Shown in pieces: positions 30,188 through 37,920 of a DNA stretch of 64,000 nt. Numbering within the stretch: the first letter of the stretch is position 1; each line of letters begins with the position of its first letter. Source of the DNA: an uncultured Bacteroidota bacterium (GTDB lineage Bacteria; Bacteroidota; Bacteroidia; NS11-12g; UBA9320). The notes under the pieces were generated by a model that ran no database searches, was not told the DNA's origin, and was given only the letters and a program-made list of their open reading frames with translations. A program made the position numbers and the translations under genes. The stretch is taken from NCBI GenBank assembly GCA_937124965.1, contig CAKZLB010000013.1, forward strand, positions 580,694-644,693, given 5' to 3'.

Positions 30188-31348
30188 CTATCCCTTCAAA
30201 ACTGCCAAAGGTGATAATCTTGTAACAACTTCAATTAAATCAAGTTGATTTCCCATCACCTCTTCGATGTTTTTGTACGCTCCGGGCGCTTCATCTAAAT
30301 CAGATTTATTTCGAATAGAATGAACAACACCAAGTTCATTTAATCGGTTTATTTCACCTGTTAAATCAAGAGTTCTTGAAGCTTGTTTTCTCCCAAGCTT
30401 ACGACCTGCACCATGCGAACAGGACTCAAAACTCTCAGGATTTCCAAGTCCTCTTACTATATACGAACTTGTTCCTTGAGAACCTGGAACCATTCCTAAC
30501 TCTCCTGCTCTTGCACGTGTTGCTCCTTTTCGATGAACAAGAACATTTTTGTCAAAGTGGTTTTCCCAAGATGCAAAATTGTGTGATTTGTTAAGTATAT
30601 CCCCTGGCTCAAAGTCACCAATAACATCCCCTAGTGACGTTATCATGCGATCCATCATCAATTTACGATTTGCCAATGCAAAATCAATACAGTAGTTCAT
30701 CTCCGAAATATAGTCTTGAGCAAGTTTGTCATCTAATGGCAAAAAAGCTAAGTCAACCTTTTTCGTTACCTCCGAAAAATATTTATCATTCAACTTCTGA
30801 GCTTCTTTGTTATAAAAGTTAGCAACGGTATACCCCAAATTTCTACTTCCAGAATGAATCATTATCCAGATGAATCCATCATCATCTTTTTGAATTTCAA
30901 CAAAGTGGTTTCCTCCTCCAAGAGTTCCTACTTGCTTCAATGCTTTCTGATATCCATTGGAAACTATTTTCAACTCTTCGTAACCTGCTGGCATAACTTC
31001 TTCATCTTGTGCTTCATTATGTGAATTCATTCCCAAAGGAATAACTTTCCGTGCATTCGAAAGAGTTTTCTTTAATTGCTTTTCGGAAACATCAGTGATG
31101 CTTGTTTTTACTGCACACATACCGCACCCAATATCAACACCGACTGCATTTGGAACCACAACATTTTCTGTGGCCAATATCGACCCAATTGGCATTCCAT
31201 AACCTTGGTGGCAATCAGGCATTAAAGGGATGTGCTTAAAAGCAAATGGCAAGTTTGCTAAATTTTTTGCTTGGCTTAATGCCCCGCCTTCAATGTCGTT
31301 TAACCATAACTTAATTGGCCTTTTTTCTGTTCCGATTACTGATTTCAT
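30188..31348 (-). CDS. rtcB: RNA-splicing ligase RtcB (3'-phosphate/5'-OH RNA ligase)
   Basis: Close to E. coli RtcB as remembered: FAFKHIPLMPDCHQGYGMPIGS..VVVPNAVGVDIGCGM, metal-binding His/Cys residues, the ...SCSHGAGRKLGR... motif (NHAGAGR-like) and a C-terminal HSIRNKSDLDEAPGAYK. 386 aa. Confidence 0.85.
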   Translation of the reverse strand: MKSVIGTEKRPIKLWLNDIEGGALSQAKNLANLPFAFKHIPLMPDCHQGYGMPIGSILATENVVVPNAVGVDIGCGMCAVKTSITDVSEKQLKKTLSNARKVIPLGMNSHNEAQDEEVMPAGYEELKIVSNGYQKALKQVGTLGGGNHFVEIQKDDDGFIWIMIHSGSRNLGYTVANFYNKEAQKLNDKYFSEVTKKVDLAFLPLDDKLAQDYISEMNYCIDFALANRKLMMDRMITSLGDVIGDFEPGDILNKSHNFASWENHFDKNVLVHRKGATRARAGELGMVPGSQGTSSYIVRGLGNPESFESCSHGAGRKLGRKQASRTLDLTGEINRLNELGVVHSIRNKSDLDEAPGAYKNIEEVMGNQLDLIEVVTRLSPLAVLKG

Positions 31349-31454: not shown

Positions 31455-32546
31455 TTAGAAGAGTGACTTTAATTGTTTCAAGACATCTGTACCTCCCGAT
31501 ACGGTAATCTCTCCCACTTTCTCAGCGATTTTTTCAAGGTATTCCATTTCTTTAAGTTTATAAAGCATGGAATTTTCCTCTAACAATTTCGCCGTATTAA
31601 GCAGGGATCGTGTGCTCGCAACCTCTTCACGTCGTGTTATAACATTGGCTTGCGCTTTTTTTTGAGCAATCAACACTTGATTAATAATTACCTTCATATC
31701 TCCTGGGAGAATGATGTCTTTAATGCCTGCGTTGTAAATGGTCAATCCCAAAACGTTAGACGTTTTTTGAAGTTCATTCAATACATAATCTGTAACTTTT
31801 TGCTTCGACTCTAACACTTCGTCTAACGTCATCCCACCAACAACTTCTCGAAGCAATAATTGCGCACCTAAATAAAGTTGTTTTTCATGTTCTTTGTTTT
31901 TTAAGACTGCTCTCATTGTATCCACAACAGAGTATTGAACGTTAAACGTCAAGCGCAAATTTGCTTTATCGCTAGTCAAAATTTCTTGTCCAGACACCTC
32001 TAAAGACTGCATACGTAAATCTACCGTGCGTATTTCGATGGTCGATGAATTCTTGTAGAAGTAATACTTTCCAGCTTTCAAAATTCTTTCAAACCTTCCA
32101 TCTACTAAAAGCACTGACTCTTCATAGGCTTTAACCTCAACAAATCGTACATATGATGCCAACTTGTTATCCGCGTATTTCAATACTTCCTTGTTGGTTA
32201 CCTCATCTGTTTTAGTGATGTCTATCAATTCAAACCGATAGGTATTTAAATCAGACAAAAACAAATATCGATTTGAGGTTAAAATAGTCTCATACAATCC
32301 ATTTTTATAAACTATACAAATTTGTCCGTCACTCACTTCTACGAGTTTAGTCGTTTCTTTTATTTTAGAGTGTTTTAACAAAACGTTTACTTCGTTTCCT
32401 GTTGCTAAAACACCATCAGAGGATTTTATTACAACTGTGTCCAAAAAGAAATTTATGATATGATTTCCTTTGGTTAATACGTCATAAAGCTCCTGCTTTC
32501 TGTAAACTAAACCGATTTCTCCGATTCTAATTCTTACATTTTTCAT
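31455..32546 (-). CDS. SPFH/band-7 (stomatin/prohibitin-like) domain protein lacking a transmembrane segment, with a ~120-aa N-terminal extension of unknown function
   Basis: SPFH core (RTVDLRMQSLEVSGQEILTSDKANLRLTFNVQYSVVD ... GLTIYNAGIKDIILPGDMKVIINQVLIAQKKAQANVITRREEVAS ... coiled-coil). No N-terminal hydrophobic anchor seen. Confidence 0.65.
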   Translation of the reverse strand: MKNVRIRIGEIGLVYRKQELYDVLTKGNHIINFFLDTVVIKSSDGVLATGNEVNVLLKHSKIKETTKLVEVSDGQICIVYKNGLYETILTSNRYLFLSDLNTYRFELIDITKTDEVTNKEVLKYADNKLASYVRFVEVKAYEESVLLVDGRFERILKAGKYYFYKNSSTIEIRTVDLRMQSLEVSGQEILTSDKANLRLTFNVQYSVVDTMRAVLKNKEHEKQLYLGAQLLLREVVGGMTLDEVLESKQKVTDYVLNELQKTSNVLGLTIYNAGIKDIILPGDMKVIINQVLIAQKKAQANVITRREEVASTRSLLNTAKLLEENSMLYKLKEMEYLEKIAEKVGEITVSGGTDVLKQLKSLF

Positions 32547-32919
32547 TTCATTATTATTATAAATTTTAATACTTGTTAAGTAAAATAGTGCGGAGGGTCT
32601 CTTGAAGAAACGGGATTGTTATTAAGTGATCATTGACAAATCAGTGATGACAAAAACTTCATTTACCAACTCGCAATTAAAACGGTATCCTAAAAATCCA
32701 AGGCTTCAGCGAGAGGTTAGATAGTTGATTCAACCGTTTAAAAATTAACAGCCTTCATGTCAAATCGCGCCCCAGCGCACTATTTTTAAAAGTTCGCTCT
32801 GCGAACCGCGACTTTTTTAGAAGAGTCAACTTCATTTAACCAGGTAATTGCTGGAGTGTCATATACTATACGACTAAAGTCCCGATGTTATCGGGGATGA
32901 TATGGCATTTGCCAGAGAT

Positions 32920-32980
32920 ACATTACTCTACCCAATTGAGTTACATCGTTAAACGATGATGGGACTCGAACCCATAACAC
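32920..32980 (-). other. circularly permuted tRNA-derived sequence (T-arm and acceptor 3' strand abutting acceptor 5' strand and D-arm) in a long intergenic region
   Basis: Minus strand reads ...tATGGGTTCGAGTCCCATcatcgtt-t-aacgatg-ta-ACTCAATTGGGTAGAGT... . That is a T-stem/loop (GGTTCGAGTCC), a 7-nt acceptor 3' strand, then its exact complement as acceptor 5' strand, then a D-arm matching the tRNA consensus. No complete cloverleaf in canonical order, so this is not a functional tRNA call. Confidence 0.45.
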
Positions 32981-33386
32981 ATGTGCCAGTATCAAGATTG
33001 CAAACAATGCAGAACATGCAGTTAAGCATGCTAAGGAGCTATACAGAAACTCGCTACAAGGCGATTGAATGGTCTTGACTTCTTTTAAAAAGATTGCCGC
33101 TCTTGCAGGCATCATTTTTATATCTTTTAATAAATCTTTTAAACTCATACTCATTCTCTTTTCACTTCAGTGACCCCGCTAACTTTATAGCGGGGGACTC
33201 ATATTCCTAAATTAAAAAATTAACTTCCTTCGTTATTCATAGGTTCCTCCCCCAGCCAATTGCTAGGGGGCCTATATGTTTCTTGTTTTGTGTAGACAAA
33301 GATTTCTTCAGAACAACGCAGTCTTTTTGCGTAGAAAAAATTATTTTTGACAATAGTCATAACTGATTGAATATCAACAAGAAAAG

Positions 33387-35120
33387 ATGCCAGTAAATCG
33401 CAACGCCCTCATTCGATATAAAACAATTGATAAATGTTTACAGAATTATTATCGCAAATGGACCTTAGAAGATTTAATTGAAGCATGTTCAGAAGCCTTG
33501 TATGAATATGAGGGAATTGATAAAGGAGTGAGCAAACGAACTATCCAGGCAGATATCCAAATAATGCGTAGCGACAAGCTTGGCTACAACGCCCCAATAA
33601 TTGTTCTTGACAAGAAGTACTACCAGTATGAGTCTAAAGAATATTCAATTACGAACATCCCATTAACAGACCAAGACTTGTCTCAGTTAAACGAGGCTGT
33701 CTCCTTTCTCAAGCAGTTTTCAGGGTTCTCGCACTTTCGGCAACTTGATGGAATGGTTCAAAAATTAGAAGACCATATATACTCTCACCAAAAACAAACC
33801 CACCCCGTTATTGATTTTGAAAAAAATGAAAATCTAAAAGGTCTGAACTTTCTAGACTCTCTTTATAAATACATTATCAATAAAAAGGCTGTTGAATTGA
33901 CATACCAATCCTTTACTGCTCGAAATCAAAGTACCTTCATATTTAACCCCTATTTACTAAAAGAATATCGCAATCGCTGGTTTGTGCTTGGAACAAAAAT
34001 GGGCGAGAGTTCGATTATTAACCTTGCCCTAGATCGACTAATAAGTGTAAATTTATCTTCCGAAACATATGAATCATCCTTAACATTTCAACCTGAAACA
34101 TATTTCAGCTCATCAATTGGAGTATCTGTAAGCAGTAATGCAGAGATACATAAAGTGATATTAGAATTTGACCGTAAGCATGCTCCATACGTAGAAACAA
34201 AACCTCTTCATCCTTCTCAAAAAGTAATTGACCGAACACCGCATACTGTAATATTTTCGATTGATGTTCAACATAGTTTTGAGTTAGAAAAAGAGATACT
34301 TTCCTATGGAAGTTCGGTTACCGTTTTAAAACCAGTGTTTCTGCGTAGGAGAATCCTTGAGAATTTAAAGGAAAGTGTATCGACATACGAAACGCAACTA
34401 AATCCAAAGAGTCTCCGTAACTCCCAAAACTTGTTATCGACACGTGGATATGCAGTGTTAAACTCTGTGTACTCCCTACGCGAATTGAAAAAGATAAATC
34501 ACTCACTTAAAAAATATTTCAAGCAAAACCCGAAAAACACATCGTTTTACATTCGGTCGTTATTCAAGGTGCATTCAGAAATCACACCATTGATATTGAC
34601 CGACTCGATTCTTCGTATTGTTCAAACCATTAATCCAAATGCTTTTTTGACAAAAGCGATGTTTCTAAAAAAGGAGAATACGAGCAACTGGCATGTAACG
34701 TGGCATCAAGATTTGACCATTAATGTCACCGAAAAAATAGAAATTGAGGGATTTACAGGCTGGTCTAAAAAAGAAGACTTTTATAGTGTATTGCCTTCTG
34801 ACGAAATAAGCAAAGATCGTTTCACAATTCGGATACATTTAGATGAAACTACCCATAAGAATGGTGCCTTGGAGACCATTCCTGGATCCCACAAAAGCGT
34901 TCATTCTACTGAAACGTTAGAAAACATAACCAAAAACTCGGTTGGGACAGTATGTGACGTTAAAGAACGAGGTGTAATGCTTATGCATCCACTAATTATT
35001 CATAGGAGTAAACTCGCTTCAAATAATAAAAAGCGAAGAGTGATACACCTTGAATTTAGCACATCTGAATTACCTCATGGTTTAGAATACTCGGAAAAAA
35101 TGAAATTAGCTGAATTATAG
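33387..35120 (+). CDS. fusion protein: YafY-like HTH-WYL-WCX transcriptional regulator (N-terminal ~330 aa) joined to a phytanoyl-CoA dioxygenase (PhyH)-family Fe(II)/2-oxoglutarate oxygenase domain (C-terminal ~230 aa)
   Basis: N-terminal HTH (RNALIRYKTIDKCLQNYYRKWTLEDLIE). WYL-domain motif (FNPYLLKEYRNRWFVLGTK). WCX-like region (ELEKEILSYGSSVTVLKPVFLRRRI). C-terminal PhyH motifs: TWHQDL (HxD facial triad), ETIPGSHK, HPLIIHRSKLASNNKKRRVIHLEF (distal His and 2OG-binding Arg pattern). Confidence 0.7.
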   Translation: MPVNRNALIRYKTIDKCLQNYYRKWTLEDLIEACSEALYEYEGIDKGVSKRTIQADIQIMRSDKLGYNAPIIVLDKKYYQYESKEYSITNIPLTDQDLSQLNEAVSFLKQFSGFSHFRQLDGMVQKLEDHIYSHQKQTHPVIDFEKNENLKGLNFLDSLYKYIINKKAVELTYQSFTARNQSTFIFNPYLLKEYRNRWFVLGTKMGESSIINLALDRLISVNLSSETYESSLTFQPETYFSSSIGVSVSSNAEIHKVILEFDRKHAPYVETKPLHPSQKVIDRTPHTVIFSIDVQHSFELEKEILSYGSSVTVLKPVFLRRRILENLKESVSTYETQLNPKSLRNSQNLLSTRGYAVLNSVYSLRELKKINHSLKKYFKQNPKNTSFYIRSLFKVHSEITPLILTDSILRIVQTINPNAFLTKAMFLKKENTSNWHVTWHQDLTINVTEKIEIEGFTGWSKKEDFYSVLPSDEISKDRFTIRIHLDETTHKNGALETIPGSHKSVHSTETLENITKNSVGTVCDVKERGVMLMHPLIIHRSKLASNNKKRRVIHLEFSTSELPHGLEYSEKMKLAEL

Positions 35121-35133
35121 GTTTGGAGCTGAA

Positions 35134-37785
35134 TTATAGATTTGGACGAAGCCACTTTTTCACTTCGTCGAATCTTTTTCCTTTTCGTTGAGCCAAATCA
35201 TCTATTTGGTCTTCTTTTATCCTTCCTACTGCAAAATATTTACTGCGAGGATGCGCGAAGTAATAGCCAGAAACAGAGGCTGCTGGGTTCATAGCAAAGT
35301 TTTCAGTCAAACTACAACCTATAGCATCTTCGACACCCAAAAGCGACCATATTTTTCCTTTCTCGGTGTGGTCAGGACACGCAGGATAACCAGGTGCAGG
35401 TCTTATGCCTTGATACTTTTCGCGAATCAGTAAATTGTTATCCAATTGTTCATTCGGTTTATACCCCCATTCGTTGGTTCTAATTTCTTTATGAAGGTAT
35501 TCTGCGAAAGCCTCTACCAATCTATCTGCAAGTATCTTGACCATTATTGCGTGGTAATCATCGTGATCTTTTTCATATTCTTTAGCAAGCGCTTCAGCTC
35601 CGTGAATGGTTACAGCAAAAAAACCCATATGATCCTCGTACCCGACAGGAGCTACAAAATCAGCTAAGCTCAAGTTTGGAATCTTTGCCGCAAGCTTTCG
35701 TTGTTGTCTCACAAATTCAAATTTCTCGAGTTTCACACCTGACGTATCATACACCGTAATGGAATTTATTTCGCTATTTGCACGAAACAACCCAGAAATT
35801 CCCTTAGCCTGATATGCGTTGTTTTCTACCATGGCTCCAAGCATGCTTTGTGCATCCTGAAACAATTTAGTTGCCTCTACCCCAACGACATCATCTTTAA
35901 GAATTGCAGGATACTTTCCTGCCAACTCCCATGCTCTAAAAAATGGAGTCCAATCAATATAGTCAATCAGCGTAGTTATAGATGGTTCCCAAATTTTAAC
36001 ACCTAAAGAATTCGGCGCTGGTGTCGACTCAGTTTCCCAATCGATTTTTAATCGGTTTTCTGTTGCATCCTCAAACGAAAGGATCTCCTTAATATCTTGT
36101 CTTTGAGCATGTTCATTTGCAAGTTTTAGGTATTCTTGTCTAACCGTATCTTGAACATTCTGCGCTGAATCTGACAGAAGACTACCAACAACAGGGACAC
36201 TTCTTGAAGCGTCAAGAACATGAATGACAGTATTTGAATAATTAGGTGCTATTTTAACCGCTGTATGAATTCTTGATGTAGTTGCACCACCGATTAGTAG
36301 GGGTAGATTCATACCTAGTCGTTCCATTTCTGTCGCAACATCTACCATTTCATCTAAACTTGGGGTAATCAGACCACTTAACCCAATAACATCTACATTT
36401 TCTTCTTTAGCTGTTTTGAGGATTTTATCCATTGGAACCATAACACCTAGGTCAATAATTTCATAACTGTTACAAGCTAAAACTACTCCAACAATATTTT
36501 TCCCAATATCGTGAACATCTCCTTTTACAGTTGCTAGTAAAATTTTACCTCTAGTACTGCCAGCTTTTTTCTCTTTCTCTAAGAACGGTAATAAGTATGC
36601 CACGGATTTTTTCATCACACGGGCACTTTTAACAACCTGTGGTAAAAACATTTTCCCTGAACCAAACAGATCTCCGACCACATTCATTCCGTCCATTAAA
36701 GGCCCTTCAATCACTTCAATTGGTGCGCTAGCTTGTTGGCGAGCTTCTTCTGTGTCTTCGTCAATATAGTCCGTGATTCCTTTGATTAACGCATGCTTCA
36801 ACCTTTCGTTTACTGACTCTTTTCTCCAAGAATCGTCTTTTACGATTACCTTACCCTTTTGCTTAACTGTTTCCGCGAAATCGACAAGTCGTTCTGTCGC
36901 GTCAGGCCTTCTATTGAAGAGAACATCCTCTACACGAACTAAAAGTTCATCAGGTATTTCGTCATAGACTTCGATCATACCTGCATTCACAATTCCCATG
37001 TCCATGCCTGCTTTAATTGCATGAAAAAGAAATGCAGAATGCATTGCTTCACGAACTGCATTGTTTCCCCTAAAGGAAAATGAAATATTACTTACTCCTC
37101 CGCTTACTAGAGCATATGGCAAATTTTCTTTAATCCAACGAGTAGCATTTATAAAATCAACCGCGTAATTATTATGTTCTTCAATACCAGTCGCTATTGC
37201 TAAAATGTTTGGATCAAAAATGATATCTTGGGCAGGGAATTTTACATTGTTTACCAGAATATCATAACTTCTTTTACAGATTTCAATTCGACGTTCATAC
37301 GTATCCGCCTGACCTGTTTCATCAAAAGCCATTACCACAGTTGCAGCACCGTAGCGTTTAATTTTTGTAGCTCTTTCAATAAAAACTTCTTCTCCATCCT
37401 TGAGACTTATGGAGTTTACGATTCCTTTTCCTTGGAGGCATTTAAGACCAGCTTCAATAATTTCCCATTTAGACGAATCAAGCATAACTGGAACCTTTGA
37501 AATATCCGGTTCTGCAGCGATAAGATTAAGGAAATTAACCATGGCTTCTTTGCCGTCAAGCATACCATCGTCCATGTTAATATCAATAACTTGAGCGCCA
37601 TTCTCTACTTGTTGTCGGGCAACTGAAAGTGCTTCATCAAATTCATTATTTAATATTAGTCTAGCGAATTTTTTGGACCCCGTAACGTTGGTTCTTTCCC
37701 CAACATTCAGGAAATTTATGTTGCTGGTAACGTTAAGTGGTTCTAGCCCACTTAATCTTAGAAGTAAATCTTGTTTCTTGTTCAT
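35134..37785 (-). CDS. metH: methionine synthase (cobalamin-dependent) lacking the homocysteine-binding domain: pterin-binding, B12-binding and AdoMet-reactivation domains only
   Basis: Begins in the methyltetrahydrofolate (pterin) domain ([21 protein letters not shown]...). B12-binding D-x-H-x-x-G motif ([30 protein letters not shown]). C-terminal activation domain. At 883 aa it is ~350 aa shorter than full-length MetH. Confidence 0.85.
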
Positions 37786-37789
37786 AGCG

Positions 37790-37920
37790 TCTACTCTATC
37801 AAGAAACTCAGAGAAGCTATCTATTCAGCCTTAAGGCTAATAGGAAGTGGCACCTTGGTTAAAATTACCGGTTGCCAAGACATCATAGGACCCATTCCCT
37901 CCGTCTTTCTTGATAGTTCT
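37790..37920 (-). ncRNA. SAM-I (S-box) riboswitch in the metH leader
   Basis: Minus-strand sequence ctATCAAGAaAGacGGAGGGAatGGgtCCtATGAtgtCttGGCAACC...aaGGTGCCActTCCtat...AGATAgc. It matches the SAM-I conserved core element by element, including the P1 UCAAGA/AGAUA pairing and GGUGCCA. It sits directly upstream of the metH start codon. Confidence 0.85.

Follow-up and report, generated by a model that had tools for sequence, protein, structure and literature searches.

A 64,000-nt stretch of DNA from an uncultured Bacteroidota bacterium (contig CAKZLB010000013.1, positions 580,694 to 644,693; hereafter the window) contains, in the 840-nt gap between a divergent WYL-type regulator gene and a gene for an SPFH/Band-7 protein, a small structured RNA in which the arms of a tRNA follow one another in circularly permuted order. 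The element is a new, Ro-independent member of the already known YrlA-type class of tRNA mimics and, as judged from covariation among related sequences, selection maintains its core module as an L-shaped mimic of a tRNA. The resemblance is genuine and exceeds what chance would give. An earlier note, made from the letters of the window alone, had described a minus-strand T-arm, two acceptor strands and a D-arm in permuted order, and the sequence is exactly as claimed there. Its statement that no tRNA in normal order can be folded agrees with the searches, as ARAGORN found neither a tRNA nor a transfer-messenger RNA (tmRNA) in the whole 64-kb window and the Rfam tRNA model gave no match in the gap at E<=10, and its statement that the resemblance is unlikely to arise by chance is supported by the matches to the Rfam family YrlA (53 bits, E = 7.3e-11) and to a covariance model built in this study, R1 (68.7 bits, E = 4.9e-18). 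The components of the module, the arms being read directly from the sequence, and an outer helix that can be drawn around it are as follows.

32919-32985 (-): core tRNA-mimic module, recognized from the sequence, the sole R1 match in the window, helix covariation and A15:U48.
32985-32981 and 32923-32919 (-): closing stem CACAT/ATGTA, with CACAT on the first and ATGTA on the second strand; 4 of 5 pairs form.
Between CACAT and the T-arm (-): variable loop GTGTT.
32975-32959 (-): T-arm ATGGG-TTCGAGT-CCCAT.
32958-32944 (-): acceptor-like hairpin CATCGTTTAACGATG.
Between the acceptor-like hairpin and the D-arm (-): TA, corresponding to U8-A9.
32941-32925 (-): D-arm ACTC-AATTGGGTA-GAGT, followed by A26.
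32896-32999 (-): possible outer helix GATA-c-TGG(CA) with (TG)CCA-TATC, inside the envelope of the YrlA match; poorly supported.

The acceptor strands do form a hairpin, of 5-6 bp with a loop of 3-5 nt, whereas the 7-bp helix with a 1-nt loop that had been proposed cannot form. The position of the anticodon stem is occupied by the short closing stem, which is 4-5 bp long and lacks an anticodon loop, and positions 15 and 48 carry A and U, in keeping with the covariation of this pair across the family. With this set of arms the window module should adopt the L-shaped elbow of a tRNA, yet it cannot decode. The outer helix appears both in a minimum free energy (MFE) fold and in the Rfam alignment; its outer stem has non-canonical positions, and its 3' side (UGGCAAAUGCCA) sits where relatives have a second T-arm. 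A pattern scan of metagenomes returned no close relative of the window RNA and only one extra locus, from a different organism (L086), so that the outer helix is without comparative support. The MFE fold of 141 nt (z = -2.3) forms the outer helix and mis-pairs the D-arm region, and for the latter reason it was not counted as evidence for the tRNA-like fold.

The evidence for selection comes from related loci, comprising 80 genome loci collected through an alignment of Band-7 homologues, 5 loci from three of the closest proteins and the metagenome locus L086. In nearly every one of them, one to three modules of the same permuted order lie 300-800 nt upstream of the Band-7 gene on the same strand; the position and strand relative to Band-7 are thus fixed across the loci. 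R1 describes a four-helix structure and was built from 45 aligned modules (44 from other loci and that of the window); searched against the 64-kb window, it gave a single match, at 32919-32985(-), and in the related loci about 85 matches of at least 50 bits, every one on the Band-7 strand and 300-800 nt upstream of the gene. Weaker R1 matches land on junctions between neighbouring real tRNA genes, a cross-reaction that is to be expected. Among the 45 seed modules 98.4% of the cells are paired and among 150 R1-aligned matches 95%, percentages that are inflated because the seed parser demanded pairing in three of the helices and the second alignment was fitted by the model. The covariation score is 0.829 in the seed (0.24 when shuffled and 0.07-0.21 in slid controls) and 0.757 in the 150 matches (0.237 when shuffled and 0.07-0.17 in slid controls). 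The number of distinct pair types is free of the pairing bias of parser and model, and pairs that change on both sides make up 16/19 in the seed and 18/19 in the 150 matches. All four helices of the module, namely the closing stem, the T-arm, the acceptor-like hairpin and the D-arm, covary; the closing stem alone occurs as GUUGU/ACAAC, UCUAU/AUAGA, GCUUG/CAAGC, CCUGU/ACAGG and UUUGU/ACAAA. Neither the parser nor R1 imposes the tertiary (Levitt) pair 15:48, for which 82 modules have G:C, 19 have A:U and 4 another combination (Fisher p ~5e-18, with phylogeny ignored), while U8-A9, A14, G18-G19, A21 and a UUCRANY T-loop are near-invariant. The covariation of the helices together with that of 15:48 indicates that the module has been selected to fold as a tRNA-like elbow, and neither a scar nor a decaying duplicate would explain it. 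The earlier suggestion of a circularly permuted, tRNA-derived structured RNA is therefore upheld by the YrlA match and the covariation, and the fear that the 5'-like half is a coincidence is dispelled, since D-arm, acceptor hairpin and closing stem all covary.

As to class, a permissive Rfam scan of 32400-33500 gave one strong match, to YrlA (RF02553, 'Y RNA-like') at 32896-32999(-), extending over the full model (positions 1-114), and in the homologous modules of L014 and L086 YrlA is the best or second-best Rfam match. The score of the window element does not reach the gathering score of 69 bits, and a scan of the window at gathering thresholds reported no YrlA and, as its only family, a SAM (S-adenosylmethionine) riboswitch. 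The YrlA class has been described by Chen et al. 2014 (PMC4201824), whose YrlA takes on a tRNA-like fold and undergoes modification and processing by tRNA enzymes. YrlA and the window module both run through a stem, a variable loop, a T-arm, a closed acceptor-like stem-loop, a D-arm and the stem again; both conserve the nucleotides that make the tertiary contacts of a tRNA, including the compensatory exchange of G15:C48 for A15:U48 that Chen et al. (PMC4201824) had noted in YrlA; and both are linked in the genome to RtcB RNA-repair operons. The Ro-type features of YrlA are absent at this locus. The motif GNCGAA(N0-1)G near the 5' end, which Chen et al. (PMC4201824) linked to Rsr binding, has no counterpart, as the 840-nt gap nowhere contains G.CGAA on the strand of the RNA. 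YrlA genes share the strand of rsr and are at most ~4 kb away from it (PMC4201824); here, no TROVE (Ro60/Rsr) domain was found among 16 ORFs (open reading frames) of the window that were tested, the neighbouring genes included. Because of the sub-threshold score, the missing GNCGAA motif and the missing TROVE gene, the element is not demonstrable as a Ro-binding Y RNA. The window also differs from YrlA loci in having an SPFH/Band-7 gene as partner and a WYL protein instead of RtcR as regulator, and in placing the module in a long leader, with two or three modules chained in relatives.

A second published description bears on the locus. Wang et al. 2018 (bioRxiv 10.1101/312249) summarize that in some bacteria RtcB adjoins a Band-7 gene and a predicted tRNA-like RNA, and that a contribution to RNA ligation is proposed for tRNA-like molecules; the association with Band-7 goes back, in their summary, to a prediction by Burroughs & Aravind 2016. 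The window element is likewise a non-coding tRNA-like RNA that adjoins a Band-7/SPFH gene in the neighbourhood of RtcB. The Band-7-associated tRNA-like RNA ('b7a-tRNA') is, however, described in that summary as strongly resembling an authentic tRNA, whereas the window element is permuted and matches neither the tRNA model nor ARAGORN as a tRNA in normal order. The relatives suggest how the two descriptions may be connected. There the closing stem is followed without a break by the variable loop and T-arm of another module. A normal-order reading that spans two modules scores 27-37 bits with the Rfam tRNA model. It starts with the 3' strand of an acceptor hairpin and the D-arm after it, has a short linker where a tRNA has its anticodon arm, and ends with the T-arm of the following module and the 5' strand of the acceptor hairpin there. 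This two-module reading may be what was called b7a-tRNA. In 24 two-module loci, however, the acceptor strands form 3.6 of 7 pairs in the normal order versus 6.2-6.4 of 7 in local hairpins, the latter values being favoured by the parser, and the covariation of the closing stem is explained by the permuted reading alone. A chain of permuted modules is favoured because the acceptor strands pair poorly across modules and the closing stem covaries; in the window, which has one T-arm, only the permuted, YrlA-like reading is possible. In four relatives the Rfam tRNA model scores above its gathering score on the leader chain (L014 3573-3635, L027 3547-3613, L020 3558-3618 and L004 3564-3630); in L014 the match runs from the D-arm of one permuted module through the T-arm of the next, and in L027 from the last D-arm through the anticodon-like arm up to the pseudoknot hairpin described below. 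Such matches could be annotated by pipelines as odd tRNAs or pseudogenes.

The module is best explained as part of a structured leader or non-coding RNA of ~740 nt that precedes the Band-7 and RtcB genes. The genes and the remaining features of this leader are listed in the order in which they are met on the minus strand, beginning with the divergent regulator.

33387-35120 (+): WYL-WCX-PhyH regulator of 577 aa, divergent, with a C-terminal PhyH dioxygenase domain (Pfam PF13280, PF25583 and PF05721).
33316-33332 (-): operator-like palindrome ACGCAAAAAGACTGCGT adjoining the WYL gene, recognized from its sequence and conserved pattern.
33297-33304 (-): Bacteroidota-type -7 box AATCTTTG, resembling TAnnTTTG.
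33025-33060 (-): conserved 5' leader motif cttgtaGCGAGTTTCTGTATAGCTCCTTAGCATGCT, with similar motifs in L085, L086, L002 and L081.
32881-32895 (-): hairpin CCCGAT-AAC-ATCGGG, found in the sequence and the MFE fold, at the position of the second acceptor-like hairpin (AS2) of relatives.
32858-32874 (-): hairpin GTCGTATAGTATATGAC, placed by position alone at the second D-arm of relatives.
32840-32854 (-): hairpin CCAG-CAATTAC-CTGG, placed by position alone at the anticodon-like arm of relatives.
32809-32833 (-): candidate H-type pseudoknot GAAG-tTGACt-CTTC, TAAAAAA, then GTCG complementary to the hairpin loop, from a family-level test.
32788-32806 (-): terminator-like hairpin GTTCGC-AGA-GCGAAC, then TTTT.
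31455-32546 (-): SPFH/Band-7 ('slipin') protein of 363 aa (Pfam PF01145, E 3e-24).
30188-31348 (-): RtcB RNA ligase of 386 aa (Pfam PF01139, E 8e-107).

On the RNA strand the gene order is thus tRNA-mimic module, Band-7, RtcB. The earlier note had placed the element exactly between the WYL regulator and RtcB; the RtcB neighbourhood is correct, and the direct contact is not, as the Band-7 gene intervenes. The arrangement recurs: among the related loci the WYL gene is divergent and upstream in ~35, an RtcB lies within 4 kb in ~45, and WYL, Band-7 and RtcB co-occur repeatedly. Of 86 loci, 60 have a palindrome RCGCA-N7-TGCGY with an nTTTG box 12-14 nt after it, and they include loci that have no adjacent WYL gene. 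Palindrome and -7 box probably serve the leader as operator and promoter, the conserved palindrome is probably a binding site of the divergent WYL regulator, and the leader transcript would start near 33290; a sigma-70 promoter scan is uninformative for a promoter of the Bacteroidota type. In the 5' leader motif a 3-bp GnG/CnC stem seems, by eye, to covary. Two further leader motifs, GCGAGTTTCTGTATAGCTCCTTAGCATGCT (33025-33060 (-)) and GGATACCG (32683-32690 (-)), are common to distant relatives. The hairpin at 32881-32895 was judged collinear, by eye, with its counterpart in two-module relatives; in the window, no T-arm stands before it as one does before AS2 in those relatives, and TGGCAAATGCCA (32902-32913) is found there instead. 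The hairpin at 32788-32806 was not called in a terminator scan (it is followed by only 4 T) and is not conserved in relatives.

The pseudoknot was examined in 34 loci, in a test anchored solely on the hairpin and the A-run. At least 4 Watson-Crick pairs between loop and tail are found in 22/34 loci, with 19 different helices, and 12/34 individually reach p<=0.05, which supports an A-rich H-type pseudoknot in the family as a whole. In ~34 loci it lies roughly 280-510 nt upstream of Band-7, and Rfam scans of the window region and the relatives matched no Rfam family to it. A second pseudoknot-like motif, with GGTT, a loop and AGCC followed by AAAAAA and a strand complementary to the loop, occurs immediately 5' of the first module in Flavobacteriia-type loci (L076, L025, L039, L038, L052, L057 and L029).

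Many of the leaders also contain real tRNA genes. They lie upstream of Band-7 on the same strand in 47/83 related loci, and the three closest relatives of the window, L081, L083 and L001, have 17, 17 and 8 tRNA genes in the leader, versus none in the window. These arrays are located on the Band-7 strand at 1608-3258 in L081, 1455-3232 in L083 and 2525-3325 in L001, with many others elsewhere (L044, L046 and L080 among them); they reach up to 18 canonical tRNA genes, and a few (e.g. that of L062) extend beyond the Band-7 gene. In the closest relatives of the window they occupy the interval from operator to module, and in several Flavobacteriia loci they stop shortly before the operator.

Taken together, these observations suggest, as a tentative proposal that could well prove wrong, that the window holds the minimal form of a Bacteroidota-wide family of leader RNAs whose architecture is possibly undescribed and whose permuted modules possibly arose from junctions of tandem tRNA genes. 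In the order proposed, a WYL-controlled palindromic operator would be followed by 0-17 tRNA genes, the 5' motif, the chain of modules, the anticodon-like arm, the pseudoknot, Band-7 and RtcB; the chain would comprise one to three permuted modules with acceptor strands that pair with themselves and not across modules. If this is true, the 'b7a-tRNA' would be more aptly described as a poly-tRNA-mimic scaffold that serves a soluble SPFH assembly. The architecture at the level of the family, with chained modules, pseudoknot, WYL operator and linked tRNA arrays, may exceed published knowledge.

With regard to function, the reading favoured here, in which a fair degree of confidence is placed, is that a YrlA-type module in a WYL-controlled leader acts as the RNA partner of a Band-7/RtcB repair module. 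The leader would be transcribed from the promoter beside the palindrome, to which the divergent WYL regulator probably binds, and the whole unit would be induced by tRNA or translation damage. The tRNA-shaped surface of the module would recruit or titrate tRNA-recognizing proteins (RtcB, modification or processing enzymes, or tRNA-cleaving toxins), and the RNA would be the cognate partner of the Band-7/RtcB module in parallel to the Y RNA that serves Ro60. By analogy with the known systems, the most likely role is in an inducible response to tRNA damage, where the RNA would be a cofactor or decoy; the regulatory or decoy role that had been thought conceivable at the outset remains among the live hypotheses. 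Two such systems are informative. In Salmonella, the rsr-yrlBA-rtcBA operon is induced by damaged tRNAs, and it has been speculated that YrlA might inhibit an anticodon nuclease (Hughes et al. 2020). In Anabaena, translational stress induces a tRNA (trn) array and rtcB (PMC8421152; PMC10272220), and deletion of trcR leads to strong joint derepression of the tRNA array, rtcB and a slipin gene (PMC10272220). The link between tRNA arrays, RtcB and SPFH/slipin is common to both, through control by TrcR in Anabaena and through same-strand adjacency in the Bacteroidota loci. The two differ in that the Anabaena regulator is a ribbon-helix-helix (RHH) repressor, TrcR, acting on direct repeats, as opposed to a WYL protein and a palindrome; in that the Anabaena genes are dispersed and the present ones clustered; and in that no tRNA mimic is reported in Anabaena, while the window has no tRNA genes.

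Several points weigh against this assignment. Besides the inflated pairing percentages noted above, the window copy is reduced, with one module versus two or three in relatives, and the hairpins at 32840-32874 look degenerate, the loop of the first lacking GG and that of the second the CU...AA pattern. The pseudoknot of the window is also weak (3 Watson-Crick pairs and 1 G-U, p = 0.32), and with its degenerate downstream arms the window copy could be partly decayed. The cofactor role is drawn by analogy only: the Band-7-associated RNAs are called unvalidated in bioRxiv 10.1101/312249, and the Salmonella YrlA was not cut by the anticodon nuclease studied, its role being a matter of speculation (Hughes et al. 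2020).

Of the other explanations, the strongest, though it is considered rather unlikely, is that the modules act in cis, as a signal for processing and stability, instead of in trans as a cofactor. They would be recognized by RNase P, RNase Z or tRNA-modifying enzymes, the leader would be cut and upstream tRNAs released, and the pseudoknot would serve as the protected 5' end of the Band-7/RtcB mRNA. The modules do share a transcription unit with the genes and in many relatives lie downstream of same-strand tRNA genes, and the conserved pseudoknot comes after them; moreover, cleavage by RNase P and addition of CCA are reported for the YrlA of M. smegmatis (PMC4201824). However, the acceptor-like stems are closed hairpins, and hence offer no 5' leader or 3' trailer for removal, and the window has no upstream tRNAs that could be released. 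RNase P and RNase Z recognize mainly the minihelix of acceptor and T-arm, and the conservation of the D-arm and of 15:48 seems to go beyond their needs.

Somewhat less probable again is that the module works against tRNA-targeting ribonuclease toxins, either as a decoy ('sponge') or by sensing damage; it would titrate or signal anticodon nucleases while RtcB repairs the real tRNAs. Competitive inhibition has been suggested for YrlA (PMC7790460) and a 'sponge' role for operonic tRNAs (PMC8421152), and relatives have anticodon-like arms with CUNNNAA loops just downstream of the modules; the window module, however, has no anticodon loop, and the loop of the anticodon-like hairpin downstream of it is atypical (CAATTAC). 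That the RNA is YrlA proper, a true Ro60/Rsr-binding Y RNA with its protein partner encoded elsewhere in the genome, is very improbable: YrlA is indeed the best Rfam family over the whole model and an outer bulged helix can be drawn, but the score falls short of the gathering score, the gap lacks the Rsr-binding motif, neither the neighbours nor the other large ORFs tested have a TROVE domain, and in relatives the next module follows directly in place of a Ro-binding stem.

Permuted tRNA genes such as those of Cyanidioschyzon merolae and two-piece tmRNA likewise encode the 3' half before the 5' half and give a functional RNA after processing; the window differs from them in its missing anticodon arm, its closed acceptor hairpin and the negative ARAGORN result. 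A decayed tRNA fragment, a recombination junction of the att type or a functional permuted tRNA gene religated by RtcB can be dismissed almost entirely; of these, the earlier note had entertained a recombination junction and a permuted tRNA gene. Nothing beyond the permuted order itself and the ability of RtcB to ligate tRNA halves speaks for them. Against them, 80+ genomes have the modules at a corresponding position and with compensatory changes that exclude both a scar and a decaying duplicate, the genes around the locus are housekeeping genes of the chromosome, the loop-less 4-5 bp closing stem abuts the next element and, with the acceptor hairpin closed by 3-5 nt, rules out a functional tRNA of any order, and ARAGORN and the Rfam tRNA model are negative in the gap.

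The wider question on which this locus bears is the role of bacterial Y-RNA-type tRNA mimics beside RtcB. The window and its 80+ homologous loci provide a set of Ro-independent mimics with clear covariation as well as a candidate operator for the WYL regulator, and culturable hosts among the loci (Pedobacter, Aquimarina, Fulvivirga and Flavobacterium) are organisms in which the cofactor, decoy and processing ideas are testable. For annotation, it matters that a structured RNA leader makes up the 840-bp 'gap' and that the 88-aa ORF overlying it is a false gene call: the ORF (32888-33154, minus strand) has no Pfam match and its translation is not conserved in relatives, and it was rejected as spurious.

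The protein-coding genes of the locus have some features of their own. The Band-7 protein has more than 7,900 homologues, mostly annotated as 'slipin family protein', and no long hydrophobic stretch was noticed on reading its sequence. The RtcB protein is also matched by NCBIfam RtcB models, though under their cut-offs. The PhyH (Fe/2-oxoglutarate dioxygenase) domain fused to the ligand-sensing regulator of an RNA-repair operon is unusual; in Pedobacter-type loci the WYL matches span ~1 kb, versus ~1.7 kb here, so that the PhyH part is probably missing there, and the regulators of L084 and L085, the sole loci whose domain content was confirmed, consist of WYL and WCX alone. Downstream of Band-7, L081 (6442-7203) has an RlaP nucleotidyltransferase in addition to RtcB, while L084 and L085 (5229-9092) have no RtcB and instead an M48/SprT-like peptidase and a large AAA_11/AAA_12 helicase-like protein. 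In the window the locus is flanked by MetH and large PKD/T9SS (type IX secretion system) proteins. The other ORFs are housekeeping genes (among them those for lysyl-tRNA synthetase, succinyl-CoA ligase and dihydrolipoyl dehydrogenase), and CHU_C and Por_Secre_tail domains occur among the proteins; these domains and the homologues of the locus assign the window to a Bacteroidota chromosome. The SAM riboswitch (RF00162, 78.5 bits, 37814-37919 on the minus strand) is in an ordinary arrangement, with the gene for B12-dependent methionine synthase (35134-37785) immediately downstream.

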